NCBI GenBank assembly: GCA_046758445.1
Contig: JBHIAE010000010.1
Span: 4,052-68,051 of the forward strand
Reading direction: 5' to 3'
DNA from: Candidatus Thorarchaeota archaeon
GTDB taxonomy: Archaea > Asgardarchaeota > Thorarchaeia > Thorarchaeales > Thorarchaeaceae
DNA: 64,000 nucleotides
The position numbers and the translations under genes are program-made. The number at the start of each line of letters is the position of its first letter. The stretch's first letter is position 1. The notes under the pieces are model-generated. The model was not told the DNA's origin and ran no database searches. It was given only the letters and a program-made list of their open reading frames with translations. Positions 1,819-23,683 of this stretch are shown one piece after another.

Positions 1819-3435
1819 GTGATACACGGGTTATTCTTAGCTTGCATTGGTACAGTACAGGACATAGGAGCTATACACTTGACCCTAGATTCTTCGTCCA
1901 AACGTTGTCCCTCATGTCAGCGTAACAATGCCAGTCACATGTGTGAGGACTGTGGCACTGTGCTATGCTCTGAGTGCTTGGAACCTAGATCAAGTGAATA
2001 CCAAGTATGCAAAGACTGTCACAACTCAGTATCCAGTTCGTACGAAGAGGACAAGATAGAAGTCTGTCCTGAGTGTGAGTCTGAGAACATAAGCACCGGT
2101 CGACGCACCGAGGACATGTGCCCCCGATGCCACTCAGGCCGCATCGTCCTTCTTGAAGAGAAACGAAGAAGCCTTGCGCAGGACCTTCGCCATGCAATAA
2201 TGAACATTCAATATGGCCATACTAGACTTCGCGAGTTCGCGAATCGATTGGACTCAGCTAAGAGGATACTTGTTTCGTTGAGGATGGCGAACTTCCTACA
2301 TTATCATTGGCTTGAGGACAAGATTGAAACAATCCAAGAGGAGCTTCCTGCAATCAAGAACAGGGTTGGTAACCAAGCTGAGATAGTATCCCGAAGAATG
2401 GCAGCGGAAACAAGCGGACTAATAGACTACAATCGGTGGACTCCAGGACAATTTCCATTCATCGAAGGGGTCACAAACAGGGTTTCAGAGATTAGCAACC
2501 ACTACAAGCAGAACGTAGACGATGCTCTGGATGAAGTGAAGCCCTTACTGAATGACGTGAGTACGCAGCTTGATGGACTGAGCTATCACCGGACCGAGTT
2601 CAAAGAGTTCTATGAACATGGCGAGTTATCCGTGAATGAACTGCCTGTCTGTGCTCTGCCAGATATCAAGATGGTGGGGAGCAACTTCCTGAAGAATGAC
2701 AAGGCCGAGGGGACCATGTATATCACCAACAAGAGGTTGATCTTCGTCGCTGAAACTGGCAGGCTTCGTAAGAAGACAGAGATTGTGTTTGACTTCCCAC
2801 TCGTCTACCTGAAGGAGATAGAAGAGGACGGTCGCCTGAGGAAGAAGCTTGTCCTAAAGATGAAACAAGGAAACCTGCGGATTAGCTGCAATGAAGAAAC
2901 GAAGAAGGTCCTTCCCGACTACATTGAGATTGCCAGACGATTTGAGAGGTACATGCAGACTGACCTTCAAAGAGTAAGGAAGATTGAGCAGAAGTCAGTG
3001 AGCATCAGCGATGTCCGACTCAAAATCGAAGGTTTGGTCTACTCCCTCCTTTCAGGTGGAAACATAGAGCTTCAAGACGGGTTGCCTACAAGACGGTGGC
3101 TGGACACTAGGGCAAAACCCACCCCAATGAGGATGCGCGATAATGCGTCAAGATATGACTACTATGACAGCTCAAAGAGGTTCAGAGACCACTTGGAAGA
3201 CACCATAGGTCGGGCTGACTATGGTACAAGAGGCCAGGACACACAATTGGAAACACTGCGACGAAACGCAATGGAAATCGATGGGGCAATTGACGAAACA
3301 ATTCGATTGATGCGTAGCGGCCATTTGGTCACTGAGGACTTCATCAGAAGGTATCGTGGACTCATGCGTGACTCATACTACACGAGAAGAGAGATTGAAC
3401 GTGTTGCCAGGGAAATGGGCAGATACAGATGGTAG
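1819..3435 (+). CDS. Uncharacterised zinc-finger / coiled-coil / GLUE(GRAM)-like PH-domain protein adjacent to ESCRT genes
   Basis: 538-aa ORF. The track start is GTG 1819; I prefer TTG 1879, which has AGGAG 8 nt upstream. Residues ~30-106 carry CPSC..CEDC..CSEC..CKDCH (cross-brace B-box/FYVE-like spacing) and then CPEC..CPRCH (zinc ribbon). Residues ~110-280 are long helical/heptad sequence. Residues ~290-370 read KAEGTMYITNKRLIFVAETG...VFDFPLVYLKEIE...LVLKMKQGNLRISC, which resembles the GRAM/GLUE split-PH signature (compare Vps36 G.LLLTTHRLIW). No TM segment or signal peptide. Confidence 0.6.
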   Translation: MIHGLFLACIGTVQDIGAIHLTLDSSSKRCPSCQRNNASHMCEDCGTVLCSECLEPRSSEYQVCKDCHNSVSSSYEEDKIEVCPECESENISTGRRTEDMCPRCHSGRIVLLEEKRRSLAQDLRHAIMNIQYGHTRLREFANRLDSAKRILVSLRMANFLHYHWLEDKIETIQEELPAIKNRVGNQAEIVSRRMAAETSGLIDYNRWTPGQFPFIEGVTNRVSEISNHYKQNVDDALDEVKPLLNDVSTQLDGLSYHRTEFKEFYEHGELSVNELPVCALPDIKMVGSNFLKNDKAEGTMYITNKRLIFVAETGRLRKKTEIVFDFPLVYLKEIEEDGRLRKKLVLKMKQGNLRISCNEETKKVLPDYIEIARRFERYMQTDLQRVRKIEQKSVSISDVRLKIEGLVYSLLSGGNIELQDGLPTRRWLDTRAKPTPMRMRDNASRYDYYDSSKRFRDHLEDTIGRADYGTRGQDTQLETLRRNAMEIDGAIDETIRLMRSGHLVTEDFIRRYRGLMRDSYYTRREIERVAREMGRYRW

Positions 3436-4044
3436 TTAGATTCCAAGTTCGCGCTCCAGCTCTTTGATGTCTTCTTCTAGAGACTCGGTTTCTGAAACAG
3501 GCTTAGCCACAGCAGAGGCGTCCAAAAGGCCTGCTTCTACATCAAGTTCCTGCATTGCACTTGATAGATCTTCAGAACTCACATCCATGGTCATGTCAAG
3601 TGCTTCACCGGAAATGCTGGCCTCAATCTCGAAATCATCAAGTCTTCGTGCGATTTCATCGACGTTCTCAACTAGCTTCTTCGCATCTGAAGTATTCCCG
3701 AGCATTCCGAGTATCTTACCGACTTCTTCTAGCGCGCGGCTCGTCTTCGCAGACGTCTGTGCTCGATTCAAATGAGCAAGTATCTTCAGTATTTGAAGAC
3801 GCGACTTGTCTACGGAAAGAGCGAACCTACGAAAGCGAACCATCTCCGTCGCATAGGTTCGGAATGCCTCAACTTGCCCGGTCTTCCTGGCTTTGACAGC
3901 CCTGGCCTTTGTGTCCCGTTCCTCTTTCTCTAACTTGTTTCTCTGTCGCTCCAGCTGTTTGGCCAGGATTCTTAGCTGACTGGATACCTCGCCAGCATCA
4001 GGCCTCTTGCGACCCCATGAGAACGCCTTCCTTAGTGAATCCAA
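3436..4044 (-). CDS. ESCRT-III subunit, Vps2/24/46 (CHMP2)-like, Snf7 family
   Basis: 202 aa with a TTG start and GGTGA 6 nt upstream. It has a basic helical N-half and an acidic C-half. LERQRNKLEKEERDTKARAVKARKTGQVEAFRTYATEMVRFRR aligns by eye to the CHMP2A core (LDRERQKLE...AKQGQMDAVRIMAKDLVRTRR). The C-terminal amphipathic EEDIKELERELGI looks like a MIM1 element. Confidence 0.8.
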   Translation of the reverse strand: MDSLRKAFSWGRKRPDAGEVSSQLRILAKQLERQRNKLEKEERDTKARAVKARKTGQVEAFRTYATEMVRFRRFALSVDKSRLQILKILAHLNRAQTSAKTSRALEEVGKILGMLGNTSDAKKLVENVDEIARRLDDFEIEASISGEALDMTMDVSSEDLSSAMQELDVEAGLLDASAVAKPVSETESLEEDIKELERELGI

Positions 4045-4218: not shown

Positions 4219-5436
4219 ATGTCTGATAGGTTAGACCTGGGCTTGAAGAAACTTCTCGACAAGGCCATAGAACTGGACCAAAGGGGAATGAAGAAGGAAG
4301 CATCGCAGTACTATCTCAAGGCAAGCAAGGTCTTGATCAAGCTGTCTAACGCATCATCTCTTCCTTCTGTCAAGAAGCACTATGTGGATAGGGCTCAGGA
4401 ATGTGTGGACAGGGTCAGATACATCTCCGGTATCAAGAAGAAAGCCAGGGGGCCTCCCGACGGTCTAACGACTCCGCTCTCACCAAGTCCTGTCAGAGAT
4501 GCAGAGGCCATCAGCGAAACGGAACCAGAAGCCGAAGTGGAAATGGATGAGGACACTCGAAGACTGCAGGAGATGATCGCGGACACGATTATCTCAGAGA
4601 AACCCAGCACAAAGATGTCAGAGGTGGCTGGCCTCGAAGCAGCAAAGCAGGCCATCAACGATGCGATTGTCGCACCAATGAAACATCCCGAGCTATTCAT
4701 GGCGAAGGCTAGACAACCATGGAGGGGAATTCTCTTCTATGGTCCAGCAGGCTGCGGAAAGACACTGATCGCGAAAGCAGTGGCTGCAGAGGTCAATGCC
4801 ACATTCTTCAATGTTTCAGCAGGAAACATAGTCAGCAAGTGGCTGGGAGAGTCGGAGAGACTTGTCATGACCCTATTTCAACTGGCCAGAAAGAGCCAGC
4901 CAGCGATAATATTCATGGATGAGCTTGACTCAATTGGGGTTTCCAGATCCGGCGACGACGTTGGCGGAGAGAGACGTCTAAAGACCCAACTATTGACAGA
5001 ACTTCAGGGACTAGCTAGTGAGGCTCAGGATAGAATAACTGTGATTGGCGCGACCAACTTGCCGTGGGAGCTGGATTTCGCACTCAGATCTCGGTTTGAG
5101 AAGAAGATTCACGTTCCACTTCCTGACAAGACTGCACGAAAGAACATCTTTCAGATTCACATGGAGGACATTGAGGTTTCATCGGAGATTGACTACGATG
5201 AGCTTGCGGACCTCAGTGAAGGATACAGCGGCCGAGACATTAGCGTTGTGTGCAGAGAGGCAGCAATGGAGCCGATTAGAGACCTCCAACACTCAGGTCG
5301 AATGGATGAGGAAGAAGAGATTCTAGATATTCGTCCTGTTTCCAGAGAGGACTTTCTCCAAGCGATTGAGAACATAAGACCGGCCACTTCTCCTGAGGAT
5401 GTCAAGAGATACATCGACTGGGCGGAGGGTTCGTAG
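4219..5436 (+). CDS. vps4: Vps4 / CdvC AAA+ ATPase (MIT domain + AAA)
   Basis: 405 aa. It has an N-terminal MIT-like three-helix region (LLDKAIELDQRGMKKEASQYYLKASKVLIKL...YVDRAQECVDRVRYI), Walker A GPAGCGKT, Walker B IIFMDELD, the SRH region VIGATNLPWELDFALRSRF, and a Vps4-type C-terminal helix (VKRYIDWAEG). Confidence 0.92.
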   Translation: MSDRLDLGLKKLLDKAIELDQRGMKKEASQYYLKASKVLIKLSNASSLPSVKKHYVDRAQECVDRVRYISGIKKKARGPPDGLTTPLSPSPVRDAEAISETEPEAEVEMDEDTRRLQEMIADTIISEKPSTKMSEVAGLEAAKQAINDAIVAPMKHPELFMAKARQPWRGILFYGPAGCGKTLIAKAVAAEVNATFFNVSAGNIVSKWLGESERLVMTLFQLARKSQPAIIFMDELDSIGVSRSGDDVGGERRLKTQLLTELQGLASEAQDRITVIGATNLPWELDFALRSRFEKKIHVPLPDKTARKNIFQIHMEDIEVSSEIDYDELADLSEGYSGRDISVVCREAAMEPIRDLQHSGRMDEEEEILDIRPVSREDFLQAIENIRPATSPEDVKRYIDWAEGS

Positions 5437-5439
5437 GTT

Positions 5440-6171
5440 TTGGGAGTCAAGGAAAGGCGCAAAGAGAAGGAGAAGGCAGAAGCTGCGTCAAAGACTGCAG
5501 AAGAAGAAGTCGAACCTGTCAAGGAGATTCGACCTCAGAGCATTGAAGAAACCCACAGACCTGTTGTTGAGATCGTAGAAGAGGCATCGGAGATTGTTCC
5601 GGAGGCTACCAATGAGGGGGTTGTCGAAGCAGTTGCAGATGACGTCACAACCTCACCTGTGGAAACCATTCTCCTCCCTTCGTGGGGCAATCAGAACGAA
5701 ACTGAATGGATGTACAGCATACCCCCTAGGGAGGAAGACAAGAAGATGTGGGCGGAGGAGTGGGCAGACTTCGTTCTAGGGTGGGCTGAAGCAAGTGGAA
5801 TTCACGTGCTCTCCGTCACTACATTCATCAAGGAGCCTCCTTTCAGCGATATCTCTGGGAAGGTAGATTCATTCCAACTGATTGGTGAAGTGCTGGTCGA
5901 GAAGAAGATTGCAGAGTGGCTTGACGAGGCGAGAAGACAGCTCCGAGTCTATTGGAGATTCCTCGAGGAATGGGCTGACATCATGTATCAATGGGCAATG
6001 AAGTCCGGAAAGCTAAGACTCGATGTGAAATCCATTGTAATCCAAGAAGAGGAACAGGGTTTCGCGAATCTGCCCGAAAAGGACATCCACATAATCATGA
6101 GAATCATGGTTGAGAAGGGAATGGCGACCTGGGTCGACAAGACGAAGGGTGCCATAAAGGTCAAGGTCTAG
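5440..6171 (+). CDS. vps25: ESCRT-II subunit Vps25-like (tandem winged helix)
   Basis: 243 aa with a TTG start 3 nt after the vps4 stop and GGAGG upstream. The C-terminal ~155 aa align by eye with human VPS25: WMYSIPP vs WQYRFPP, WADFVLGW vs WCSLVLSF, KIAEWLDEARRQLRVYWRFLEEWADIMYQWA vs GNLEWLDKSKSSFLIMWRRPEEWGKLIYQWV, and terminal GAIKVKV vs RGVKFF. The acidic ~90-aa N-terminal extension depends on the non-ATG start. Confidence 0.8.
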   Translation: MGVKERRKEKEKAEAASKTAEEEVEPVKEIRPQSIEETHRPVVEIVEEASEIVPEATNEGVVEAVADDVTTSPVETILLPSWGNQNETEWMYSIPPREEDKKMWAEEWADFVLGWAEASGIHVLSVTTFIKEPPFSDISGKVDSFQLIGEVLVEKKIAEWLDEARRQLRVYWRFLEEWADIMYQWAMKSGKLRLDVKSIVIQEEEQGFANLPEKDIHIIMRIMVEKGMATWVDKTKGAIKVKV

Positions 6172-6174
6172 AGC

Positions 6175-6933
6175 TTAACGGGCAGACCCAAAGGATTGGT
6201 CACTCTTATCCCTGGCCCTAAGGCCGGGAAAGTAATAGCGGCCTCCAGTGGAGAAACGAATGTCAGCCACGGCCATTCCAGCATCGACGAGGCTCGCGAG
6301 GACTTGACGTGCATGGTCTTCTGACCATTTGAACTGCATCATTACCTCCTCAACCGATACATGACCTTTTGAAGCTGCTAGGTTGACAACGTCAGCCTGG
6401 TCTCTTCTTAGCTCTAAGGGGCGAAGCTCAACTACTTTCACACCGCCTCTAAGAGTACGAATCCCAGGGATAAGGCCATGTTCCGCCACTCGATTCACAG
6501 CCTCAATCACATCACTGTAACTCACGGCCTTGAGCTCAGGGAGACGTTTGACAACCTCAACGATCAGCTCTGCCAGCCCCATGAGACCTTTCGAAGCGTT
6601 TGCAGTGGCAACGTCAAGTATGGCGAGCCCAATGTAGTCATAGTACTCCTCTTGGGACATTCCGTCTGCTCTTGGATGAGTTTCAGACCTTTGAAGATTC
6701 AGCAGCTGAATAGCATCAGCAAATCGTTCTGTTAGCCTCTCCATCTCCATGAAAGAACTGATGTCAAGCCCAATCCGACTGAAGTCATCGATATTGTGTT
6801 TGACCTCTCTTGTAAGTGCTTCAGACTCTCTTTGATATGACCTGATATCGACCACTCCCAAATCGAACATCTTCTTCAGTTGGTCCAGCGTGGCTATGGA
6901 CGCGTAGAGTTCTGACTGAAGTCGCTCCTGCAT
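6175..6933 (-). CDS. vps22: ESCRT-II subunit Vps22 / SNF8 (EAP30 domain)-like
   Basis: 252 aa. By-eye alignment to human SNF8/EAP30: EEYYDYIGLAILDV vs DFYYELGVQIIEV, VSYSDVIEAVNRV vs VSQDDLIRAIKKL, GHVSVEEVMMQFKWSEDHARQVLASLVDAGMAVAD vs GYVTVSEIKASLKWETERARQVLEHLLKEGLAWLD, and RYYFPGL vs HYWLPAL. Confidence 0.85.
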   Translation of the reverse strand: MQERLQSELYASIATLDQLKKMFDLGVVDIRSYQRESEALTREVKHNIDDFSRIGLDISSFMEMERLTERFADAIQLLNLQRSETHPRADGMSQEEYYDYIGLAILDVATANASKGLMGLAELIVEVVKRLPELKAVSYSDVIEAVNRVAEHGLIPGIRTLRGGVKVVELRPLELRRDQADVVNLAASKGHVSVEEVMMQFKWSEDHARQVLASLVDAGMAVADIRFSTGGRYYFPGLRARDKSDQSFGSAR

Positions 6934-7029: not shown

Positions 7030-8388
7030 CTAAGGAGTGATTCTATCTCTATCTCTAGGAAGTAGTGTTGCTTCTCTGATGTTTTCAATCCCAAGCATCT
7101 GCATTGTCAGCCGCTCCACGCCCAATCCGAGACCTCCATGGGGTGGTGCCCCGAATTTGAAGGGATCAAGGTAGAAGGCGAAATCATCTGGATTGAAACC
7201 CTTCGCTTTGAATCTCTCTATGAGGAGGTCATAGAGATGAATGCGCTGGCTGCCGGTTGTGATCTCCATGCCTTTGTAGGTAAGATCGAAACTCTCAGTC
7301 ATGCCCTCATCTGTGAGACTAGGCATTGTATATGCAGGACGCAATTCCATAGGATAGTGCGTTATGAAGACCATATCAGTACCGTACTTCCTTGGAAAGA
7401 TCTCTCCAAGGAGGCGCTCCCCCTCTGGATCGATATCTTCAGTGATTGAGATCTCCTTCCCTTCTTGGTTCAACAGATCGATAGCCGTTTCGAACTTGAT
7501 TCTCTTGAATGGAACCTTGGGTATCTCCAGATCTATCCCCAGAAGCTCAAGTTCTGCTGCTGATGCCTTTGCAGTTTCTTTGAATGAATGGTGTAGCATC
7601 TTCTCCTCCATCTTCATTACATCATCGACGTCACTGATCCAGGCCATCTCATAGTCAAAAGATGTGTATTCGTTAATGTGGCGGCGTGTGTTATGCTTCT
7701 CAGCTCTAAACACCGGGGCAATCTCAAAGACTCGACCAAAGCCCGCAAGCAACATCAATTGCTTGTAGAACTGTGGACTCTGTGCTAGGTACGCTTTCTT
7801 GTCAAAGTACTTTATCTCGAAGAGGTTGGCTCCACCCTCAGTCGCCTCAGCAACTATCTTGGGTGTGTGAATCTCTACGAAGTCATTGGCTTCGAGAAAC
7901 TCTCGGGCGAATCTCACAAGGGAGTGTTGGATGTGGAATATTGCATTGACCGTGGGCTTCCTTAGATCAAGTATTCTGTGATTTAGGCGAGTGTCGAGTT
8001 CGACGTCTACCTTACCTTCCACGACATCAATGGGTAGACGTTCCGCTCTATTGATAATACGAATCTCTTCAGGGATAACTTCTACACCTGATGCGACCTG
8101 TTTCGCAGATACTACTGTGCCTTTCACAGCAACAGCATATTCGGGCTTCAGCTGTCTCGCCACTTCGAAGACAGCCTCTGAAACCTTCTTCTGGGGAATG
8201 GTGATTTGAACTGTGCCGTGTTCATCTCGTAGAATCAGGAACTTGATCTTGCCCTTGTCACGCAGAATGTGAACCCATCCCAGCAGTGCTACTTCAGTAT
8301 CAATGGCGTCTGCTGTGATCGCGTCACTGAAGTGAGTGCGTCTTCCTTCGCCAATTGGTTCAACACCTGCTTCACTGTAGAAGTCCAT
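7030..8388 (-). CDS. aspS: Aspartyl-tRNA synthetase, archaeal/eukaryal type
   Basis: 452 aa with an N-terminal OB anticodon-binding fold and class II motifs (FRAEKHNTRRHINEYTSFDYEMAW; GGLGLGVERL). Confidence 0.93.
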   Translation of the reverse strand: MDFYSEAGVEPIGEGRRTHFSDAITADAIDTEVALLGWVHILRDKGKIKFLILRDEHGTVQITIPQKKVSEAVFEVARQLKPEYAVAVKGTVVSAKQVASGVEVIPEEIRIINRAERLPIDVVEGKVDVELDTRLNHRILDLRKPTVNAIFHIQHSLVRFAREFLEANDFVEIHTPKIVAEATEGGANLFEIKYFDKKAYLAQSPQFYKQLMLLAGFGRVFEIAPVFRAEKHNTRRHINEYTSFDYEMAWISDVDDVMKMEEKMLHHSFKETAKASAAELELLGIDLEIPKVPFKRIKFETAIDLLNQEGKEISITEDIDPEGERLLGEIFPRKYGTDMVFITHYPMELRPAYTMPSLTDEGMTESFDLTYKGMEITTGSQRIHLYDLLIERFKAKGFNPDDFAFYLDPFKFGAPPHGGLGLGVERLTMQMLGIENIREATLLPRDRDRITP

Positions 8389-8922: not shown

Positions 8923-9597
8923 ATGTACTCCTTTGATGCCCTCGAGATTATTGGTCATCGCAGCCTACCAGTTCCCAACACCTTCTATAGACTGGAAAGG
9001 AGGTCTAATAGACTTGCTTTGGTTTTCCCAGGACGAGGGTATACCTCACAAGCTCCACTGCTCCATTACACAATAAGCACACTGATTGCTGCAGGGTTCA
9101 ATGTGCTAAGTGTGAACTATTCGTATCTTCACAACAATGACTTTGAGTCACTCCGGAGAGAGGAGCAAATGAGATGGTTGTATGATGATGTGGAAGCCGC
9201 GTATCATGTAGCCACCAAGAAGCTAGATGCAGAAGTGGATGTTCTCATTGGCAAATCCTTGGGTACTATTGCAATAGGCCATTTGCTTGACAAACATCCA
9301 AGACTGTCACAGTGTAGGGTGGTATGGCACACGCCATTGATACTCTTGCCTGAACTCCAGCAGCAGATCAAGAACCATCACCCACAATCGCTCTTCGTGA
9401 TTGGCACGGCAGATCCACACTATGATCAAGATACGTTGGCGGAGTTGGTGGAATCGACCAATGGCGAGGCAGTGGTTGTTGAGGACGCGAACCATGCAAT
9501 GGAAGTGCCTGGAGAGGTCAATGACTCGTTGTGGATCATTGGTAAGATCATTGACAGCGTCGGGGAGTTTCTGGGGGTCACTGCTTCTGAAGGATGA
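8923..9597 (+). CDS. Alpha/beta hydrolase
   Basis: 224 aa with the nucleophile elbow GKSLG, then GTADP and DANHAM (Ser-Asp-His triad spacing). Confidence 0.65.
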   Translation: MYSFDALEIIGHRSLPVPNTFYRLERRSNRLALVFPGRGYTSQAPLLHYTISTLIAAGFNVLSVNYSYLHNNDFESLRREEQMRWLYDDVEAAYHVATKKLDAEVDVLIGKSLGTIAIGHLLDKHPRLSQCRVVWHTPLILLPELQQQIKNHHPQSLFVIGTADPHYDQDTLAELVESTNGEAVVVEDANHAMEVPGEVNDSLWIIGKIIDSVGEFLGVTASEG

Positions 9598-10936
9598 GAA
9601 TCCACTCACCGTGCATTCGTTCCCTCCGCGGGATACGGATGAAATGTCTGATGAGCGCAGAGAAGAAGACCTTATCAAGACTGAAACCAACATCTTCAGC
9701 TGTGGCAATCTCTGAGAGGATTTCGTGAGAGGGGACCTCAACATTGCGAATCAAGTTGTTGCCTATCGCCACACAATAATGCCCACCTGGTTTCAGCACC
9801 CTAGCCATCTCCTGAAACTGGAGCTTCATGTCCTCGAAGAACTTGTAGGTGATGAATGACCGTCGTGGGTCCTGGTCGAATATCTCCTCAAGAATCGGGT
9901 CCAGAGTTTCAACGCCAGAGATTTTGAGTCGTTCATATTCCCTCTTGTAGACCGTTTCGGTTCCGATGTACTTTCGCTTCATATTTGAGAGAGGACCCTC
10001 CTCCACGAGCCCGAGCCAATACATCTCGAGCTGATGGGTTCGTGGATAGTCGACTGCGTTTATATATGGAGGAGAGCTCACGGCGAGGTCAATAGCAGAA
10101 GTTCTCAGTCCAGTTTCCATAGCATTTCCATCAGGAAGTCGAACCTCTCCAACTCCCGAAGTCTGATATAATGTATGTAAACGCTTCATGCCATCAAGCT
10201 GTCTAGAGAGAGCTGAGTAGAATCTAGCAATAGTGTCTCCAGCACTGATCTTCTTCACGAGGTTCTTTCGTATGACGGTCCTGGTACAGTGTGGATCGGC
10301 ATTGGAAGCATCTCTGATTATCGATGAGAACACGACCTGCATGAAGTCAACGACATCACTATGATGCGAGCTGGTTCGGGTCACCCCTAGGTCGGTGAGG
10401 TCAAGATCGCATATACTCTCTAGAATGATGCCAAGCTCCCTGAGAACGAACGGACGAAACCACGTATCTCTATAATTGAAGTCAGGGATATGTGGTTCGG
10501 AATCACGAGCTCTTTCTTTCTTCTTGATGGCTTCCATCAGTTTCTCGCACGCGGATTCGAGCAGAAACTCCTCTATTGGAGTCGTTTTGACCTTCGTTAT
10601 CAGGCGTGCCATTGGGTCGATGTCAATTCCAACTGCATTTCTTCCTGATAGCATCGCCTCAAGAACCACTGTACCACTGCCGCACATTGGGTCCAGAACC
10701 TGATGATTCCTCTCAGAGTATCTTCGGATCAGATAGCGTGGCAGCTCGGGGAAGAACTTGGCTGGGAATTTGTGGATTCCATGTGTTAGGTAGGACTGGT
10801 CCCGGCTAATTATCAGTATTTTTGCATGATTGGGTATGGAGGTGTCTGGGTCGATGTCCCCATGAATCTCTAGAAGCTCTTCATCGCTGTCACTGGAACT
10901 ATCCAAAGGTCGACTGCGACTAGAAGGGGTTCCCAT
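9578..10936 (-). CDS. N4-C/N6-A type methyltransferase with SPPY motif (orphan; DNA target assumed)
   Basis: 452 aa. The AdoMet motif VLDPMCGSGTVVLEA is preceded by HKFPAKFFPELP (like HPAxFP of N6_N4 MTases). The catalytic motif DLAVSSPPYINAVDY lies ~200 aa downstream, so motif I comes before motif IV. No nuclease gene is adjacent. The 3' end overlaps the convergent hydrolase gene by 20 nt. Confidence 0.75.
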   Translation of the reverse strand: MGTPSSRSRPLDSSSDSDEELLEIHGDIDPDTSIPNHAKILIISRDQSYLTHGIHKFPAKFFPELPRYLIRRYSERNHQVLDPMCGSGTVVLEAMLSGRNAVGIDIDPMARLITKVKTTPIEEFLLESACEKLMEAIKKKERARDSEPHIPDFNYRDTWFRPFVLRELGIILESICDLDLTDLGVTRTSSHHSDVVDFMQVVFSSIIRDASNADPHCTRTVIRKNLVKKISAGDTIARFYSALSRQLDGMKRLHTLYQTSGVGEVRLPDGNAMETGLRTSAIDLAVSSPPYINAVDYPRTHQLEMYWLGLVEEGPLSNMKRKYIGTETVYKREYERLKISGVETLDPILEEIFDQDPRRSFITYKFFEDMKLQFQEMARVLKPGGHYCVAIGNNLIRNVEVPSHEILSEIATAEDVGFSLDKVFFSALIRHFIRIPRRERMHGEWILILQKQ

Positions 10937-15576: not shown

Positions 15577-18381
15577 TTAGAAGAACTTGTCAAGAGTAGT
15601 GAAGCCTAAGAGCTCCTCAAAGTCAATTCCAACGGAATCCAAGACCTGCTCGAACACTGAACGTAGTGTATCAAGATACTTCTCTTTGTCAATCCAATAG
15701 GCTCGATCCTGAGCAAGTTGAATCGGTAGCACTCCTCCGTCACCTTTCGTCTTCATGTATTCCACGATGGTCCCAGGGGGAACCTCATAGCCCGCATCTC
15801 TGAGCATCTCTGCAGCCCTTACATGCTGCGGCTTTGATAGACCATAATCTCCCACGCGTTTGGTCATCTGGACTCGGAAGGCGAGCTCCTCGGGCGTGTA
15901 GGATTCGGTCTTCTCTTCCAGGCGGTCAATGACAGAGTTCACTATCTCCTTGATATCTTTCTTGGCAGTTTCAAACCCTTCCTCGCTCTCGACTCGGCTG
16001 AGAACGTCGAGCATCTTCTTGAATGCACCCTGTACGAAATCGGGAGTATTACGTTTCTTCCCGCTCAAACCCTTGACTTCTACCCATCCGGACTCAAGGA
16101 CGCCGATGTAGTTCTTCTTTCTCTCAGAGAGGGCCACATACTTGTAGGTCTTCTCAACCTCAAGATCAATTCCGAGCTCCTCTTGGGACCAGCGAACCAG
16201 CTCCGACTGCTGTTCCTCTGTTGGATTGTCTAGAAAGACAGAGTCTGTGTCACCGTAGAGGACCTTGACTCCCATGGATTCAGCCTTCTCCTGCGTCTTG
16301 ACAATGGCATTGCGTCCATAGGCAGTGACACTTTCAGCTGCAGGCATGCAGAACAGCTCGAAGTGCTGCGCTCCTGTCACGCCATAGGATGCGTTCAGGA
16401 ACACCTTCAGTGCTTTCTCAACGACGCCGTACCAGTTCATCGTTTCTTCGCCGAGAGACTTGTCCTTACTCTTGGGCTTGAACCAGTTCACGCGAGTATC
16501 TCTGAAAAAGCCAATCGTCTGACTGATCATCCCCTTGCGTTCACTACACACCCAATGGTCTGTTTCGGGAACACGATTATTCGGATCTAGTTTGCAGGAT
16601 TCGTGAGGACAGTCGATTGTTTCATAGCTGATGTTGTGATGCTTCATGATTGTCGGGTACAGACTGGCAAAATCGAGAACTGTCGCTTTGAAGTGCACTC
16701 CCGCAACAGGTTCTATCACAATCGCACCCTTGAAGCTCTTATCCTTGATGATCGCCTCCGTCTGCGCTTCCGCTGACTTCACACTATCGATATCGACACG
16801 CCGAGGAATCAAGTATCCCTGTGACCTATGCTCCTGCCGAAACAATGATTGAATCCATGAGGAGATGTACAGTCTCGTCACGTCTTCCATTGAAAGGCGT
16901 GAGATTCGCATCAGAAGAACAATCAGACGTAGGAGAAGATTGTTGTCGAAAGTAGTGAGTTGTAGAGTCAGATTAGTATCACGCCAGCAATAGTGAGCAA
17001 GTTCGTGATATGGCAGTGAGGAGATGTCAGTGCTGAGCTCGAGCTTCCCGATACCGAGCAGACCCTTGGTGATTGATTCCAGATTGAATTGCTCGTAGGC
17101 GCCCGACAGCGCGTAAAGGCGAATTGAGGGATTCTTCAAGAACCGATACAAGTCGACGTGCACACCTCTCTGAAGCAGTGCAACATCTCTCCCTAGGTAT
17201 ATAGGACACTGCTTCGTCATGTCAATCCCAAGCCTCTCTGCACGGTGATACAAGTAGCTTAGATCGAATGCGTCCCCCACAAACGTCAAGACGATTGGAT
17301 AGCTATCGATTGTTTTGAACGCATCGACAAGCATCTCCTTCTCATCATCATAGAAAACAATCTCCATCTCTGGCGGGTAATCTTTGCTCTTCGGGCCCTC
17401 TGATATCCCCGCCCTTTTCAGAAGGAAGCACTTGTCGCAGCCTTCATTGTCAGAGAGTCCAATAGCAATCACTTCATACGGTGCAGTCCTCGCATCTGGA
17501 ATCCTGTTCTTCACAGGTGTATAGACCTCAATGTCAATTGCAATACGGCGAATGTCGGGTACTTCGGTGAACAACATAGGAGCATACTCAGAGATCAATC
17601 TCTCAGTGCCCTCTTCGGCACCAATTGCGCTCCTAAACTCCCTGAGCAGTTTCTTGTCAAGTTCGGGTGAGCTCGGAACGAGGCTTCCTTTCTCAATTCT
17701 GTAAGGAAGACCTGATACTATGTTAGTGTCATATGTGTAACAATTGCGATAGCGGATTGCGGCCTCCCATGCGTGACTAACGGTTTGGTCTCCAGAAGCA
17801 TCTACCAGACGGTCTCTGATTGCTCCAGCGGATCCTCCAATAGAGAGTGGGTCACTAGCAATCACCTTGGTCATCTTCACAGGTTCATCCCGGAGTAGGT
17901 CGGTCAGCTCTACCTCCTCTGAATGTACAAACCCACCGTGACGACCAATCTTCTGTTCCGCAATCTGCACTGGATAGTCGGTGTAGCAGTAGGGCTGATG
18001 GCCAGTGTTGTCAAACCAGAAGTAGATTCTCTTGTCATCAGGGTTGTAGAGCCTTGCGAACGCCTTTCTCTGAGCGCCTGCATAGTCAACAGAGAGGAGA
18101 TAGGAGGGTGCTAGGTCTTCTGGAGTTTCCCGTTCACCTACACGCAGCTCTGAAACAGTTTCCTCTGTTTCATCAATCATAACTTTGTCTTCGATTTCTT
18201 CTTCCTCGGAGAGAGCATTGTGGGATTCAGATGCTTGTTCAATCTGATTCTCCTTCGCTGGAATGGCTCCTTCTTTCGGAGGCTCCTCTGCCGGCTCTTC
18301 TGACTCATCGACCTCGGATGAGTCGAAAAAATCCTCAAGACTCGACTGGGAGTCGTCTTCGGGCCTCTTATCTTTCGCCAA
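15577..18381 (-). CDS. polB: Family B DNA polymerase
   Basis: 934 aa with Exo I (IAIDIEV), Pol motif A (DFASLYPTIM) and motif C (YGDTDS). The track start is TTG and gives a 67-aa acidic extension. The first ATG is at 18178-18180. Confidence 0.93.
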   Translation of the reverse strand: MAKDKRPEDDSQSSLEDFFDSSEVDESEEPAEEPPKEGAIPAKENQIEQASESHNALSEEEEIEDKVMIDETEETVSELRVGERETPEDLAPSYLLSVDYAGAQRKAFARLYNPDDKRIYFWFDNTGHQPYCYTDYPVQIAEQKIGRHGGFVHSEEVELTDLLRDEPVKMTKVIASDPLSIGGSAGAIRDRLVDASGDQTVSHAWEAAIRYRNCYTYDTNIVSGLPYRIEKGSLVPSSPELDKKLLREFRSAIGAEEGTERLISEYAPMLFTEVPDIRRIAIDIEVYTPVKNRIPDARTAPYEVIAIGLSDNEGCDKCFLLKRAGISEGPKSKDYPPEMEIVFYDDEKEMLVDAFKTIDSYPIVLTFVGDAFDLSYLYHRAERLGIDMTKQCPIYLGRDVALLQRGVHVDLYRFLKNPSIRLYALSGAYEQFNLESITKGLLGIGKLELSTDISSLPYHELAHYCWRDTNLTLQLTTFDNNLLLRLIVLLMRISRLSMEDVTRLYISSWIQSLFRQEHRSQGYLIPRRVDIDSVKSAEAQTEAIIKDKSFKGAIVIEPVAGVHFKATVLDFASLYPTIMKHHNISYETIDCPHESCKLDPNNRVPETDHWVCSERKGMISQTIGFFRDTRVNWFKPKSKDKSLGEETMNWYGVVEKALKVFLNASYGVTGAQHFELFCMPAAESVTAYGRNAIVKTQEKAESMGVKVLYGDTDSVFLDNPTEEQQSELVRWSQEELGIDLEVEKTYKYVALSERKKNYIGVLESGWVEVKGLSGKKRNTPDFVQGAFKKMLDVLSRVESEEGFETAKKDIKEIVNSVIDRLEEKTESYTPEELAFRVQMTKRVGDYGLSKPQHVRAAEMLRDAGYEVPPGTIVEYMKTKGDGGVLPIQLAQDRAYWIDKEKYLDTLRSVFEQVLDSVGIDFEELLGFTTLDKFF

Positions 18382-19477: not shown

Positions 19478-20644
19478 TTGAGCGGAAGAAGGAAACTAGT
19501 CTTCTTTGACCAGACACAAAATGAGCGCGGCAGAATAGACACCACATATTCGGAGCTTGCCAAACTCCTAAGAAACAATGATTTCGATGTTGAACCATAC
19601 ACCGAGTTCATGATTCTTGCAAAGAACATTGAGAATGCTGATGTCATCGTCTTCGGTTGTCCGAATAGCTCGAAGCTTAGACCTGCTGAAATCGATGTCC
19701 TAAAACGATACGTGCAGAAGGGTGGAGGCCTATTATTGCTCTCTCTATCCGGAGGGGACAGAGGCCTCATGAACAACATGAGCCAAATCTCGAGAGGTTT
19801 TGGAATAAGCTTCGAGAACACCGCGTTCCGTGATGAACGTAGTAATGCGGGAATCCCCACAATGCCCATCATCACAGACCTAATATCGCATCCTGTCAAT
19901 GAAGGGATAGAGGACTTGCTTGTGCCATCAAGTTGTACATTGAAGGTCACTGCGAAGGGGACGGTTCTTGCCTCATCTTCAAACACAGGAGACCCTCCTA
20001 ACAAACCGATTGTGGCCATTGCAGAACCCAAAAAGGGGCGGATGATCTGCGTAGGAAGTTATGAGGTATTCAGAAGAGGAGGCGGAATGAAACATCCAGG
20101 AAACAAGCAGTTTGCAGTTAATACGTTCAAGTGGCTGAGTGGAGAAGTCAGTCTTGTCAAACCTAGCGAAGTGGATGACGCAAAGAAGGTAACGGCAGCC
20201 AAGGCTAGGGTTTCCAAGAGAGAAGCTGCAGAGATGGAGAAGACTATGCGGAGACTCGTAAACGCAGTCTTCGACCTACAAAAGGACATAGGAAAGGTCG
20301 CCAAACAAGTGACGAATGTGGAGAGGAATGTCGAGCTGTTGCGAGATCAGTTTCAAGATTTCGCTGAAAAGACGCAGACCCAACTGGGCGTGATGATTCC
20401 AGCGGGGCAATTCAGGACTGAGGAGGAGAATCAGGCCGCAGAGATTGAGGCTGACATTAAAGCGCTGGAGAAAGAAGTTAGGTCAGTTCGCCAGCTTAGA
20501 GATCACGTTGAAGGGAAACATTCCTCCGGGGCTATGCCCAAGGAAACTTACATGGAGCAGGCAGAGAAACTAGATGGAAGACTGAGGAGTCTTGAGAAGA
20601 GACTCAAGGGTCGGAAGAAGGAATTAGAGAAGATTCTCAGTTAG
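19478..20644 (+). CDS. GIFT / GldG / DUF4350-like (IFT52 N-terminal-like) domain protein with C-terminal coiled coil
   Basis: 388 aa with a TTG start and AGGTG 8 nt upstream. The N-terminal ~230 aa include ADVIVFGCPNSSKLRPAEIDVLKRYVQKGGGLLLLSLSGGD...ISRGFGISFENTAF...RMICVGSYEVF...NKQFAVNTFKWLSG. As I recall the families, this follows the GIFT-domain pattern shared by GldG and IFT52. The C-terminal ~150 aa are heptad-rich. Confidence 0.6.
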   Translation: MSGRRKLVFFDQTQNERGRIDTTYSELAKLLRNNDFDVEPYTEFMILAKNIENADVIVFGCPNSSKLRPAEIDVLKRYVQKGGGLLLLSLSGGDRGLMNNMSQISRGFGISFENTAFRDERSNAGIPTMPIITDLISHPVNEGIEDLLVPSSCTLKVTAKGTVLASSSNTGDPPNKPIVAIAEPKKGRMICVGSYEVFRRGGGMKHPGNKQFAVNTFKWLSGEVSLVKPSEVDDAKKVTAAKARVSKREAAEMEKTMRRLVNAVFDLQKDIGKVAKQVTNVERNVELLRDQFQDFAEKTQTQLGVMIPAGQFRTEEENQAAEIEADIKALEKEVRSVRQLRDHVEGKHSSGAMPKETYMEQAEKLDGRLRSLEKRLKGRKKELEKILS

Positions 20645-20651
20645 TCGGCTC

Positions 20652-22142
20652 CTACTCTCGATTCCTAGCTGCGGCCCGATTCCGGATTTGTGTGTCGAGT
20701 CTTCTGATTGGGGAAGTGACCCTTTGATATACTTCTGAGAAGGGCTTATGAAGGACGTAACCGAGAATGATTAGAAAGAGGAACAGCAGGTAGAAGTTGC
20801 GATCAGGCACCAACACAAGGAAACTGATCAATAGTGGGACGGCAATCATAGGCAGGGAAATCCTTGCGGAATATGGCTCCCGCCGGCAAATTGCGGATGT
20901 TGACATGATGCTAAAGAATGGAACAAGCGCAACCATGTAGTACTTGTAGATGCCCCGAGGCGAGAAGAAATGTGCCCAGAACAGCAGGACTAGGGTCAGG
21001 AAGAGCATTCTTCTCCAGTAGCCCTCAAGGTTGCGATCATCCTTCACCTCAAGAAGCATCATAGCTAAGAGCGGCAGTATACCCAAAGTCAATGCGACCG
21101 AATAGTAGGTGATTAGATTCACTGCTTGGATAAGCCATTCGGGAGCACCAAGGATAATCAGTACAACTGCGGGCGTTATTGGGTTGTTTATGGGAGGCGG
21201 AGTTGTGAGGTCTCTTAGCAAGGTAGCACCAACGCGCTGAAAGATATAGAAGAAGTAGTTGGAGAAATCAATGAGGTATGGCATAGAGAGAGCGCCTGCA
21301 AAGAGCAATACAATGATGGCAATCTTGGCGAATCCTTTGAGGTCGAAATCATCACTTGTAGGTTTCTTTGTAGTCGACTCTGTGTCCTCTGAATCATCAC
21401 CCATTTCTAGTGGTCCTGGAGGTTTCTTTAGTAGCACTGCAACGAGTGGCAAAGCCAGAAAGAATGCCGTTTGTTTGAAGAATGCAGCTGTGGTCAACGC
21501 GAGAGCTCCAGAAACGCGTCTGTTCTTAATGACGAGGTAGAATGAGAGTACCGCAAAGAAGACAAAAGGTGCGGGATTCAGCCATTCGAAAGCAGTATGG
21601 TAAAGGACTATGGGGTTTAGCAGATACATAGCGGCTGATACTGCTCCCACATCTCGGTTCTGTGAGAGGTATGTCGCAATCCCGTAGACAGGGAACGACG
21701 TGAGAAATCCAAACCCTGAGATCAGCAGGCCGATACCGATGTCTGGGTGGATTATCTCACCAAGAGCGCACATGTAGACGTACAGCGGCGGAAAGAAGTA
21801 GATAACATTGTACTCTGTGCTACCTCGAAACAGCCGATTGAAATCATCTGTATAGGGCATGCGACCGCTCAGAAACTGATCTGCCCAGCTATGGTAGAAG
21901 TAGTCATGGTCTGCCCAGCCCTCAAAATGCACTGCAAGTGTATAGCCGAAGATGTCGATGCTACCCTCGCCATTCCAGACAGCTCTTGGCCAGTTCGGGT
22001 TTGCGACAAACTCAGTAGCGGCTCGGATGAACATCATCGTCCATACAAATGAGGCTGTGACAATAACAATCAGAAAGAGCCAGTGTCTACGTATTAGGAC
22101 CAATAAGCGGTCCGATGTTCCACTTGATTGTTTGCTCATCAA
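20652..22142 (-). CDS. GT-C fold integral-membrane glycosyltransferase (PIG-M/PimE/DUF2029-like), paralog 1
   Basis: 496 aa with more than 10 TM helices. The first-loop motif is GWADHDYFYHSWADQFLSGRMPYTD. It shares FKQTAFFLALPLV and SPRGIYKYYMVALVPFFSI with 23768..25441. The probable start is the ATG at 22137-22139. Confidence 0.7.
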   Translation of the reverse strand: MMSKQSSGTSDRLLVLIRRHWLFLIVIVTASFVWTMMFIRAATEFVANPNWPRAVWNGEGSIDIFGYTLAVHFEGWADHDYFYHSWADQFLSGRMPYTDDFNRLFRGSTEYNVIYFFPPLYVYMCALGEIIHPDIGIGLLISGFGFLTSFPVYGIATYLSQNRDVGAVSAAMYLLNPIVLYHTAFEWLNPAPFVFFAVLSFYLVIKNRRVSGALALTTAAFFKQTAFFLALPLVAVLLKKPPGPLEMGDDSEDTESTTKKPTSDDFDLKGFAKIAIIVLLFAGALSMPYLIDFSNYFFYIFQRVGATLLRDLTTPPPINNPITPAVVLIILGAPEWLIQAVNLITYYSVALTLGILPLLAMMLLEVKDDRNLEGYWRRMLFLTLVLLFWAHFFSPRGIYKYYMVALVPFFSIMSTSAICRREPYSARISLPMIAVPLLISFLVLVPDRNFYLLFLFLIILGYVLHKPFSEVYQRVTSPIRRLDTQIRNRAAARNRE

Positions 22143-22342: not shown

Positions 22343-23683
22343 GTGACTGCAATCCCAAAGAAAAAGGACATAGATAGCCTCCTTGGAAACGCTAGGAGCA
22401 TGTTGGCACAGGGAAGACTCGGTGACGCTCATGATCATGCAAAACGTGCCCTCAGCATTGCGACTGATATACTGCAGATCGCGGAAATACAGATGTTGTT
22501 GGGAGAGGTCTTCCGAAGTAGGGAAGAATGGAGTACGGCTGTGGCCCATTTCAGAAAGGCCACAGAGATTGACACTGAGAACAAAGAGGCATGGCTCGGT
22601 CTTGCAGAGTCCTTGGAGAGTTCCGGGAAGGGAGATGATTGGAAGACTGCAGCCGAGAAGACAGTCCAACTGGGAGGAGGCGATTCAAGCCTCCGTTCTA
22701 AACTAGCTGATTACATTGCAGTCGACGAGGGGACCGACCGGGCCAAGGTCCAAATCGCCCTCAACCAGAACGAGGAAGCGGAGAAGACTCTCAAGGAGCT
22801 GATTCCCTTGCTTCCTAGTGATCCGAAAGGCAACGATGAATTGCGATGGACAACCGTTCTCCTTCAGCTGGGCCAAGTTAAGAGAAGATTGGGCAAGTAT
22901 GAGGAGTTGGAAGCTTGTTCTAAGAAACTCCTGAGCTTCAAGAAAGTCCATGATGTACTTCTATTTCGAGGCATTATGAACATCAAAGTTGACCTCGCTG
23001 TGGCTCTCAAGGGACAGAACAAGATGGAGGAGCTAGATACTCTCGTGAAAGAGGTCCTAGCCGTTACACCAGATGATTCAGAAACGCTGTTTCAGAAGGG
23101 TCTTCTTCTCGGCTCAATAGAGCATCATTATGAGGCGGTCAAATACCTTCGTCAAAGTCTGAAGATGGACCGATTTGATGCAAGAGCCATGCATAGGCTC
23201 AAGTTTGAACTCGAAACAATTGGCGATGCAAGAACGCAGTTCTGGTGTCCACACTGCCAGGAGAAATACACTATCCCAGTCTATCCAACAGACCCAGCTG
23301 GAATCCCGACCATGGTGTTCTATATCAAGACAGAGGACGTAATCCCAGACAGTGTTAGACATGTATCGTGCCGGTCATGTGGCAGAATGACTGCTCTCAT
23401 ACTCTGGGTGTGTAGAAACTGCCTAGAGGGTTATGCTGGGTCACTCCAAGTTAGAGTCGATCCAGCCTCTCCAATAGTCCGAGGACAAGGGCGCGAAACA
23501 TACTATCATCGCGTGGGTAGGGCCTGTGACTCGTGCGAAGAGAATGAACCACGTGTGCACATCAGAAATAAGGATCCTAGAGAGAAACGTTTCTTCGAAG
23601 GTATGTTGACACTTAGGCCAGACCTGGTCGAACAGATTCGCGTCTTTGACCAAGTAGAGAGTGAAATGAATCAATTCGAATAA
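22343..23683 (+). CDS. TPR-repeat protein with C-terminal multi-CxxC zinc-ribbon region
   Basis: 446 aa (track start GTG; an alternative ATG is at 22400). It has TPR-like helices (AWLGLAESLESSGKGDDWKTAAEKTV) and the motifs CPHC, CRSCG, CRNC and CDSC in the last 130 aa. Confidence 0.6.
   Translation: MTAIPKKKDIDSLLGNARSMLAQGRLGDAHDHAKRALSIATDILQIAEIQMLLGEVFRSREEWSTAVAHFRKATEIDTENKEAWLGLAESLESSGKGDDWKTAAEKTVQLGGGDSSLRSKLADYIAVDEGTDRAKVQIALNQNEEAEKTLKELIPLLPSDPKGNDELRWTTVLLQLGQVKRRLGKYEELEACSKKLLSFKKVHDVLLFRGIMNIKVDLAVALKGQNKMEELDTLVKEVLAVTPDDSETLFQKGLLLGSIEHHYEAVKYLRQSLKMDRFDARAMHRLKFELETIGDARTQFWCPHCQEKYTIPVYPTDPAGIPTMVFYIKTEDVIPDSVRHVSCRSCGRMTALILWVCRNCLEGYAGSLQVRVDPASPIVRGQGRETYYHRVGRACDSCEENEPRVHIRNKDPREKRFFEGMLTLRPDLVEQIRVFDQVESEMNQFE

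Follow-up and report, generated by a model that had tools for sequence, protein, structure and literature searches.

The ESCRT gene cluster

The window, that is the whole stretch of 64,000 nucleotides that was analysed, contains an open reading frame of 538 aa with a GTG start at 1819..3435 on the forward strand, and this is followed by a series of ESCRT genes. The first of these is an ESCRT-III gene (Pfam Snf7) at 3436..4044 on the reverse strand, which is convergent with the open reading frame such that the two stop codons abut. It is followed by Vps4 (4219..5436, forward strand; Pfam MIT, AAA and Vps4_C), a Vps25-like ESCRT-II subunit (5440..6171, forward strand; Pfam ESCRT-II, E 1.8e-14) and Vps22 (6175..6933, reverse strand; Pfam EAP30, E 4.7e-14). 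These are the neighbours named in the first-pass annotation, made from the sequence alone, which had also remarked on the lack of a second EAP30 protein. Pfam and phmmer searches agree on both points, with no second EAP30, Vps25 or Snf7 paralogue found by phmmer in the 64 kb window. A Vps28 gene was likewise not found in the window.

Vps22 carries a steadiness-box-like segment at its N-terminus. Residues 7-79 match the N-terminal region of Pfam VPS28 (E 0.062), and in a search of the 488 ORFs of the window a steadiness-box profile matched Vps22 with an E of 0.0014. The same fusion of a steadiness box to Vps22 is given for the Thorarchaeota protein KXH75178.1 (Makarova 2024, Table S3). Vps22 is a candidate docking partner for the protein encoded by the open reading frame. 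A further ORF at 19478-20644 gave a weak steadiness-box match, and was rejected as a generic C-terminal coiled coil following an IFT52-GIFT-like domain.

The open reading frame upstream of ESCRT-III is a real gene, as had been claimed; 166 homologues were found at E ≤1e-3 (best E 0), and a chance ORF was thus rejected. However, the gene probably starts not at GTG 1819 but at the in-frame TTG at 1879, because a GGAG lies upstream at 1867-1870 and orthologues begin with M-T-x-D at this very position. The probable CDS is then 1879..3435 on the forward strand, encoding 518 aa; residue numbers below refer to the 538 aa frame. The deposited model of the orthologue ThorAB25_08990, and many other models in the databases, begin 20 aa late and have lost the first invariant CxxC. 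The corrected start of the window gene restores this first pair of zinc ligands.

Membership of the Znr_CC_PH_SB family

The protein is 60% identical over 509 aa (E 0.0) to ThorAB25_08990, the steadiness box protein 'SB' that was used in yeast two-hybrid assays and whose sequence is in the Supplementary Data of that study (Hatano et al. 2022, Nat Commun). The order of genes at the published locus is 08990 SB, 09000 ESCRT3A, 09010 Vps4, 09020 Vps25 and 09030 Vps22 (Hatano 2022). Gene order in the window is the same as that of ThorAB25 08990-09030, and the Snf7 proteins of the two loci (ThorAB25_09000, 'ESCRT3A') are 78% identical.

A link to a second published name comes from a more distant homologue of 671 aa (P0136), which is matched by the window protein with a BLASTP E of 8e-40 over 390 aa. 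The neighbourhood of this homologue (Peptidase C69 ... L35Ae, X, MetE, Snf7) equals that of cog.011556 in Lokiarchaeum GC14_75, as given in Table S2 of Makarova 2024. This asCOG, 'Znr_CC_PH_SB', is a predicted Asgard ESCRT-I component with a membrane-associated PH domain (Makarova et al. 2024, mBio), and is elsewhere listed as a 'Steadiness/Vps23 box' family (bioRxiv 10.1101/2023.07.25.550441). By sequence and gene neighbourhood, the window gene is the Thorarchaeota orthologue of the published Znr_CC_PH_SB (cog.011556) or 'SB' family and not an undescribed ESCRT module. The first-pass annotation was thus mistaken in placing its architecture outside the described ESCRT components, since it is that of ThorAB25_08990 (Hatano 2022) and cog.011556 (Makarova 2024).

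The window protein differs from this family in nothing essential, sharing all four domains and their order. Thorarchaeota orthologues number in the hundreds. The arrangement of zinc module, helical region, PH domain, linker and steadiness box is kept in approximately 119 clusters of 50%-identity representatives, and the same order of domains is found in distant members from other Asgard lineages.

Domain architecture

The N-terminus contains 12 cysteines in six CxxC pairs, none of which varies among 26 family members whose identity to the window protein is only 19-53%. The first four pairs (CPSC 30-33, x8, CEDC 42-45, x4, CSEC 50-53, x10, CKDC(H) 64-68) form a B-box/RING-like zinc finger of eight cysteines at 1906..2022 on the forward strand (residues 30-68). 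The remaining two (CPEC 83-86, x14, CPRC(H) 101-105) form a third zinc site, a four-cysteine ribbon CPEC-x14-CPRCH at 2065..2133, also on the forward strand (residues 83-105). The pattern CPSC-x8-CEDC-x4-CSEC-x10-CKDCH plus a zinc ribbon had been read exactly in the first pass. Cysteine conservation and Pfam together give three N-terminal zinc-binding sites, as in the Znr_CC_PH_SB family. The type of finger, which the first pass had left to be checked, resembles both B-box and RING fingers in sequence. The isolated finger domain passes the Pfam cut-off for zf-B_box (25.4 bits vs 24.1), a profile matched by 21/22 family members, and the isolated domain also scores 30.6 bits against DZR (cut-off 27.3). 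When a family profile of the zinc module was searched against the PDB, the matches included the RINGs of RNF4 (E 4.6e-7) and RING1B and the B-boxes of TRIM2, TIF1-beta and TRIM21. These fingers are termed 'three Zn ribbons' by Makarova 2024, whereas in the present searches a single B-box/RING-like finger accounts for the first two sites.

The zinc module is followed by a helical or coiled-coil region at 2152..2619 on the forward strand (residues 112-267). AlphaFold2 predicts four helices here (112-158, 163-198, 209-238 and 241-267; pLDDT ~85-94), spanning ~156 aa in place of the ~170 aa of coiled coil first estimated. Searches of Pfam and the PDB returned coiled-coil noise and no specific family match for this region, and similarity to the ESCRT-I stalk was not detectable in the same searches. 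The top Foldseek matches of the full-length model were DH-PH RhoGEFs. However, these had TM-scores below 0.25 and an rmsd above 18 Å; they were read as a generic 'helices plus PH' arrangement, and a DH domain was rejected.

The segment GTMYITNKRLIFVAETG...LVLKMKQGNLRISC, in which a likeness to the GRAM/GLUE split-PH domain of Vps36 had been noted, falls inside a PH-like domain of seven strands and a C-terminal helix (residues 276-373; pLDDT 86.6, pTM 0.75). The feature is placed at 2638..2937 on the forward strand (residues 274-373). The likeness holds for the fold, but the domain model is continuous and not split. Conserved basic residues of the domain include K292, K295, R317-K319 and R339-K342. 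The suggested comparison with Vps36 GLUE, GRAM and bacterial PH domains by structure prediction and Foldseek matched all three, and all of the top matches of the isolated domain were PH-like. The best was the GLUE domain of human EAP45 (Vps36; 2hth_B, E 7.8e-5, TM 0.53/0.57), with yeast Vps36 (2cay) at E 5e-4. GRAM and other PH domains lay within tenfold of GLUE in E, and the highest TM-score belonged to the GRAM-PH domain of MTMR2 (TMq 0.59). A sequence profile of the domain searched against the PDB again gave yeast Vps36 2cay as its best match, with an E of 0.033. Among family members, Pfam matches were to bPH_3 (17/22, best E 1.4e-8), Vps36_ESCRT-II (11/22) and GRAM (10/22). The window domain itself matched GRAM with an E of 7.4e-5 and scored 17.7 bits against Vps36_ESCRT-II, for which the cut-off is 24.1. 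As modelled, the domain has a PH fold and belongs with the GRAM, GLUE and bacterial PH domains. A specific GLUE ancestry is not supported, because the scores of GRAM and bacterial PH domains are close to those of GLUE.

A probably disordered and poorly conserved linker follows at 3055..3168 on the forward strand (residues 413-450; pLDDT <50). It is variable in length, and in non-Thorarchaeota members grows into a long P-, Q- and N-rich tract.

The steadiness box is a hallmark of ESCRT-I. In the window protein, the C-terminus is predicted to form a hairpin of two helices (3229..3423, forward strand; residues 471-535; pLDDT ~90), which family profiles assign to the Vps23-type steadiness box. Pfam Vps23_core matched 10/18 Thorarchaeota and 13/18 non-Thorarchaeota members (best E 3.1e-7). 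The non-Thorarchaeota hairpin profile matched the yeast Vps23 core (E 8.8e-7) and TSG101 (E 4e-3) in the PDB, the Vps23/TSG101 structures matched by the hairpin being 2p22, 2f66, 2caz and 6vme. The Thorarchaeota and non-Thorarchaeota profiles in turn aligned to each other with an hhalign probability of 95.6%. The window protein alone scores weakly and below threshold (Mod_r, E 0.24).

This conserved hairpin, overlooked in the first-pass annotation, is the most diagnostic of the four parts.

Conservation of the gene neighbourhood

Four Thorarchaeota loci were fully syntenic. In four non-Thorarchaeota loci the context is otherwise unrelated, yet the family gene is separated from a Snf7 gene by between zero and three others; linkage to ESCRT-III, the conservation of which had been proposed as a check, is thus also found in distantly related lineages. 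The two genes are convergent, and either abutting or overlapping, in Thorarchaeota and in one of the other loci (L007), and are separated by 1-3 genes in the remaining three (L005, L008, L009). No Vps22 or Vps25 gene was called within 8 kb of the Loki-type family members. The neighbour that is conserved across distant lineages is ESCRT-III only, and not ESCRT-II or Vps28.

The adjoining ESCRT-III paralogue differs between lineages. The Snf7 protein beside the family member at L009 is 66% identical to Lokiarch_16760, and its BLASTP comparison with the window Snf7 is insignificant because the two are different ESCRT-III paralogues. The locus tags of Vps22 and Vps25 in Lokiarchaeum (37450, 37460) are far from that of this ESCRT-III gene, 16760 (Hatano 2022).

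Predicted role in the ESCRT pathway

The most likely function, to which we give a probability of roughly 0.55, is that of a ubiquitin-independent, membrane-binding adaptor, ESCRT-I-like and analogous to Vps23, that would dock via its steadiness box. We infer its membrane binding, docking partner and order of action as follows. The PH domain, rich in conserved basic residues in its loops, would anchor the protein at the membrane, while the B-box/RING-like finger, zinc ribbon and helical region may bind cargo or partners or mediate self-assembly. The Vps23-type hairpin would pack on the steadiness box of another subunit. The obvious candidate in the locus is the box at the N-terminal end of Vps22; failing that, a Vps28-like protein from a gene outside the locus could serve. 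Such packing would hand over to ESCRT-II, ESCRT-III and Vps4. The upstream recruiter role put forward in the first pass agrees with the ESCRT-I role predicted in the literature (Makarova 2024).

The protein and Vps23/TSG101 have in common the C-terminal hairpin, at family level in sequence, as well as a helical region, a flexible linker and the predicted upstream position in the pathway. The head is different. Where Vps23 has a ubiquitin-binding UEV domain, Znr_CC_PH_SB has a zinc module and a PH domain, and no UEV/UBC match to the window protein was found in Pfam or PDB searches, the N-terminus being the zinc module. In addition, the stalk of Vps23 directly precedes its steadiness box, whereas the helices of Znr_CC_PH_SB precede the PH domain and are separated from the box by this domain and the linker. 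Thorarchaeota are seemingly without ubiquitin (Hatano 2022), and both Loki- and Thorarchaeia are without a UEV-Vps23 (bioRxiv 10.1101/2023.07.25.550441). In lineages without UEV-Vps23, the missing upstream end of the Asgard ESCRT pathway could plausibly be provided by this family. The family also bears on the pre-eukaryotic origin of ESCRT-I, ESCRT-II and membrane/cargo recognition, a significance already pointed out in publications of 2022 and 2024. To this, the window adds a further orthologue with a corrected start, evidence on the PH fold (GLUE matches best, though not exclusively), Vps23-type profiles of the hairpin and linkage to ESCRT-III as the conserved context.

Several points count against the ESCRT-I-like adaptor: the weak steadiness-box score of the window protein alone, the unstalk-like position of the helices ahead of the PH domain, the lack of a Vps28 gene in the window, and ESCRT-III as the conserved neighbour, which suits a direct link to ESCRT-III equally well. 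By analogy with the recruitment of CdvB by CdvA in Thermoproteota, the PH domain could sit on the membrane and the hairpin recruit the adjacent ESCRT-III directly, bypassing ESCRT-II. We regard this as possible, if tentative. CdvA has a related hairpin, the CdvA hairpin and the steadiness box being treated as homologous in the literature (Makarova 2024; bioRxiv 10.1101/2023.07.25.550441), and its gene also lies beside ESCRT-III; Znr_CC_PH_SB could conceivably act as a recruiter bound to the membrane. Pfam CdvA matched the C-terminus of one member with an E of 2.5e-4. However, Vps23_core matches are stronger and far more common (13/18 members, vs 2/18 for CdvA), and the lineage-dependent choice of ESCRT-III paralogue argues against one fixed partner. 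Moreover, the PRC barrel and the ESCRT-III-binding peptide of CdvA were not identified in the family protein, and CdvA itself lacks both a zinc module and a PH domain.

A rather doubtful proposal is that the protein is the sole ESCRT-I-like subunit and pairs directly with the steadiness box of Vps22, making up a ubiquitin-independent hybrid of ESCRT-I and ESCRT-II. The GLUE-like PH domain would then be an ancestral module that later moved onto Vps36 in eukaryotes.

The first pass had also put forward a detached Vps36 head, in which the GLUE-like PH domain and zinc fingers would serve the Vps22/Vps25 core in trans as a module for binding the membrane and upstream factors. This is unlikely. Both proteins have a PH fold with predicted membrane binding, GLUE domains lead the structural and PDB profile matches, yeast Vps36 also bears zinc fingers on the same polypeptide, and the Thorarchaeota gene lies beside Vps25 and Vps22 in a window with a single EAP30 gene. 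However, the tandem winged-helix core of EAP30 has no Pfam match in the window protein, where the PH domain is followed by the linker and a hairpin of ESCRT-I type. The fingers of yeast Vps36 are of the NZF type and inserted in the PH domain, whereas those of Znr_CC_PH_SB are N-terminal, comprise a B-box and a ribbon, and leave the PH domain continuous. Nor is the match exclusive to GLUE. The GRAM and bacterial PH domains that match in sequence come from unrelated architectures, none of them joined to a steadiness box. The Loki-type loci, with Vps22 and Vps25 outside the 8 kb searched and distant by locus tag in Lokiarchaeum, also argue against a split Vps36, as does the self-interaction of Thorarchaeota Vps22 (Hatano 2022), which would fill the Vps36 position.

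Finally, it is very improbable that the protein acts as a TRIM-like E3-type ligase or self-assembling lattice built from the RING/B-box and coiled coil, in which the PH domain and the steadiness box would be substrate or targeting modules, since matches of Cys-rich fingers are compositionally easy, ubiquitin is reported missing from Thorarchaeota (Hatano 2022) and no E2-like gene was noticed among the scanned ORFs near the gene, even though the zinc-module profile matches RINGs and B-boxes and the layout of finger(s), coiled coil and C-terminal domain recalls the tripartite motif.

Gene model and start codon

The 538 aa open reading frame that the first-pass annotation had placed at 1819-3435 (+) is present in the window, and the cysteine spacing described for its product is exact. 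Chance occurrence was ruled out by 166 homologues at E <= 1e-3, the top ones all from Thorarchaeota-type MAGs and nearly all labelled 'hypothetical'. The annotated neighbours are TldD/PmbA (309-1703, -), Snf7/ESCRT-III (3436-4044, -), Vps4 (4219-5436, +), a Vps25-like gene (5440-6171, +) and EAP30/Vps22 (6175-6933, -), together with a gene (7030-8388, -) assigned to AspRS by synteny with the tRNA-synt_2 gene at the equivalent position in Thorarchaeota loci. An in-frame TTG at 1879 coincides with the M-T-x-D start of most aligned orthologues and has a GGAG upstream (1867-1870); the actual product is therefore probably 518 aa. Many deposited models of the family start at 'MCEDCG' and so miss the first CxxC pair, which is invariant family-wide and is restored in the window by TTG 1879. 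ThorAB25_08990, as listed for yeast two-hybrid work, is among these models (Hatano et al. 2022, Supplementary Data 1), and a construct without the pair would carry an incomplete Zn site.

The gene meets the convergent ESCRT-III gene stop to stop at 3433-3438, with zero intergenic bases. The same junction lies at 7557/7558 and 7569/7571 in two Thorarchaeota loci (L001 and L002) and at 9524-9527 in L007, a locus from another Asgard lineage. With convergent ends that abut or overlap, the transcripts must overlap, or each must terminate within the other gene.

Published identity of the family

The architecture, which the first pass did not recognise among described ESCRT components, had already been published by Makarova et al. 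2024 and Hatano et al. 2022. The former (PMC10936438) describe 'Znr_PH_CC_SB / Znr_CC_PH_SB' (asCOG cog.011556), with three Zn ribbons, a coiled coil, a steadiness box and a PH domain 'expected to be membrane associated', as 'a likely ESCRT-I component'. The Lokiarchaeum GC14_75 rows of their Table S2 place the member between L35Ae and MetE, adjoining an ESCRT-III gene; the order in those rows is also found around P0136, a 671 aa family member (locus L009) that matches the window protein at E 8e-40. Hatano et al. (PMC9192718) include 'ThorAB25_08990|SB' among the proteins listed for yeast two-hybrid assays. This protein shares 60% identity with the window protein along its whole length, and the ThorAB25 locus tags follow the window gene order. 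They describe it as the freestanding steadiness box protein, which 'may interact with Vps28', note possible interactions bypassing Vps25 in Thorarchaeota, and, in the legend of Supplementary Figure 8, give Asgard ESCRT-I-like proteins domains that include RING, CC and PH. A 2023 preprint (10.1101/2023.07.25.550441) terms cog.011556 the 'Steadiness/Vps23 box' family and reports Loki- and Thorarchaeia to be without UEV-Vps23. A literature search found no further published functional test of the SB / Znr_CC_PH_SB protein. The window protein is one more orthologue of a described family; our four small additions are the truncated deposited models, GLUE as the best but not exclusive match, the Vps23_core-type hairpin and the ESCRT-III linkage signature.

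Domain architecture

An HMM search run exhaustively over 1.84 billion representatives placed the family in 119 clusters, with proteins of 480-910 aa and a constant order of Zn module, helical region, PH domain, variable linker and steadiness box. In the AlphaFold2 model of the window protein (29-sequence alignment, mean pLDDT 73.9), the Cys-rich N-terminus contains small beta elements. Four helices (residues 112-158, 163-198, 209-238 and 241-267) lead to a beta domain (276-356), after which come further helices (359-412), a linker of low confidence (415-450) and a helical hairpin modelled with confidence (471-499 and 505-535). The helical region had no specific match in Pfam and PDB searches. 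Outside Thorarchaeota, the linker between PH domain and steadiness box is ~100-350 aa long, of low complexity and P/Q/N-rich (columns ~430-900 of the broad alignment). It is reminiscent of the proline-rich region of Vps23/TSG101 but occupies another position.

All cysteines of the Zn module (12/12) are invariant in an alignment whose members share only 19-53% identity with the window protein. In isolation the module scored 30.6 bits against DZR (Pfam cut-off 27.3) and 25.4 bits against zf-B_box (cut-off 24.1), the latter being matched by 21/22 family members, and PDB matches of the family profile were RING fingers (RNF4, E 4.6e-7) and TRIM B-boxes. From its sequence, the module is read as an eight-Cys B-box/RING-like finger plus a four-Cys ribbon. 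The Pfam ANCHR-like B-box was matched by 17/22 modules (window 1906-2022), a resemblance that may be only compositional. ANCHR/ZFYVE19, a eukaryotic protein of the abscission checkpoint, binds VPS4 and CHMP4C.

Residues 262-400, modelled alone with 40 sequences (pLDDT 86.6, pTM 0.75), form seven strands and then a C-terminal helix. Foldseek against the PDB returned human EAP45/Vps36 GLUE (2hth_B, E 7.8e-5, TM 0.53 / 0.57), MTMR2 GRAM-PH (E 8.7e-5, TMq 0.59), yeast Vps36 PH (2cay, E 5e-4, TM 0.53 / 0.56) and mouse EAP45 GLUE (2dx5, E 5.1e-4, TMt 0.67), with BBS5, Lam6 GRAM and bacterial PH domains ranking next. Pfam matches among family members were to bPH_3 (17/22), Vps36_ESCRT-II (11/22) and GRAM (10/22), and the top PDB match of the profile was yeast Vps36 (E 0.033). 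Given this ranking and these matches, the first-pass GRAM/GLUE-like call was right at the level of fold; the domain is continuous rather than split, and these matches do not tie it specifically to GLUE, which for the modelled domain is the top structural match, not an exclusive one.

The C-terminal hairpin had been overlooked. Thorarchaeota C-termini matched Pfam Vps23_core in 10/18 cases (best E 3.9e-4) and Mod_r, the Vps37 family, in 4/18, and their profile matched core structures of yeast Vps23 at E 0.02-0.1. Non-Thorarchaeota C-termini matched Vps23_core in 13/18 (best E 3.1e-7), yeast Vps23 cores 2p22, 2f66 and 2caz (E 9e-7 to 5e-6) and human TSG101 6vme (E 4e-3). The two hairpin profiles align with an hhalign probability of 95.6%, and the non-Thorarchaeota profile recovers the window protein at E 8.9e-8. 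By these profile matches the hairpin is a steadiness box, specifically of the Vps23_core type. Steadiness boxes are the helical hairpins from which the ESCRT-I headpiece is built.

Genomic context

In four Thorarchaeota loci synteny with the window is complete (TFIIB, ArgRS, TldD x2, the family gene, Snf7, Vps4, Vps25, Vps22, AspRS). The shared order demonstrates conservation but, with the entire region syntenic, counts for little as evidence of linkage. The non-Thorarchaeota loci are more informative: their surroundings are otherwise unrelated, yet a Snf7 gene lies 0-3 intervening genes from the family gene. One gene intervenes in L008 and L009 and three in L005 and L006, while in L007, from a distant lineage, the two genes are convergent with a 4-nt overlap and a second Snf7 gene follows. 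The paralogue varies by lineage. The window Snf7 (3436-4044) is 78% identical to ThorAB25_09000 'ESCRT3A', the neighbours in Loki-type loci resemble Lokiarch_16760, and L007 has one of each type in tandem. By BLAST, Lokiarch_16760, labelled Vps20 family by Makarova, is nearer Heimdall 'ESCRT3B' than Heimdall or Thor 'ESCRT3A'; between Loki and Thor, the literature seems to apply the A/B names inconsistently. The conserved genomic signature of the family is ESCRT-III linkage with a lineage-dependent paralogue.

Inferred function

For the family protein, the best-supported reading is an adaptor that is ESCRT-I-like and analogous to Vps23. In it, the PH domain would lie at the membrane, the Zn module together with the helical region would bind cargo or partners or self-assemble, and the steadiness box would dock onto another subunit bearing one. 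In the window locus Vps22 (6175-6933, -) would be the obvious candidate partner, because its own N-terminus is steadiness-box-like: an extension of ~80 aa there is similar to a steadiness box or to the N-terminus of Vps28 (steadiness-box profile, E 0.0014; Pfam VPS28 N-terminal region, E 0.062). This agrees with the published Asgard steadiness box-Vps22 fusion, the same N-terminus being recorded for a Thor Vps22 (PMC10936438, Table S3).

The main rival to the adaptor is a CdvA-like role, in which the family protein directly recruits the adjoining ESCRT-III; the conserved gene linkage fits it about as well. The split Vps36 head proposed in the first pass is disfavoured: the winged-helix core is missing, the C-terminus is of ESCRT-I type, the type and position of the finger differ, and zero ESCRT-II genes were called near the family gene in Loki-type loci. 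For a TRIM-like ligase, similarity of the finger is the sole basis. The first-pass observation was confirmed with corrections, and its interpretation partly supported.

Other genes in the window

Downstream of the ESCRT cluster lie an N6/N4 DNA methylase-like gene (9578-10936, -) and a family B DNA polymerase (15577-18381, -, 934 aa), both ordinary and with no apparent link to the SB protein gene. The 388 aa product of 19478-20644 (+) has a clear IFT52 GIFT-domain match (PF23355, E 5.7e-16, 58.8 bits, cut-off 27.2) with a coiled coil C-terminal to it; it was rejected as a steadiness-box protein, its weak profile match looking like coiled-coil noise. Its neighbours are 20652-22142 (-), 496 aa with zero Pfam matches, and 22343-23683 (+), a TPR protein whose zinc-ribbon match is weak and below threshold.
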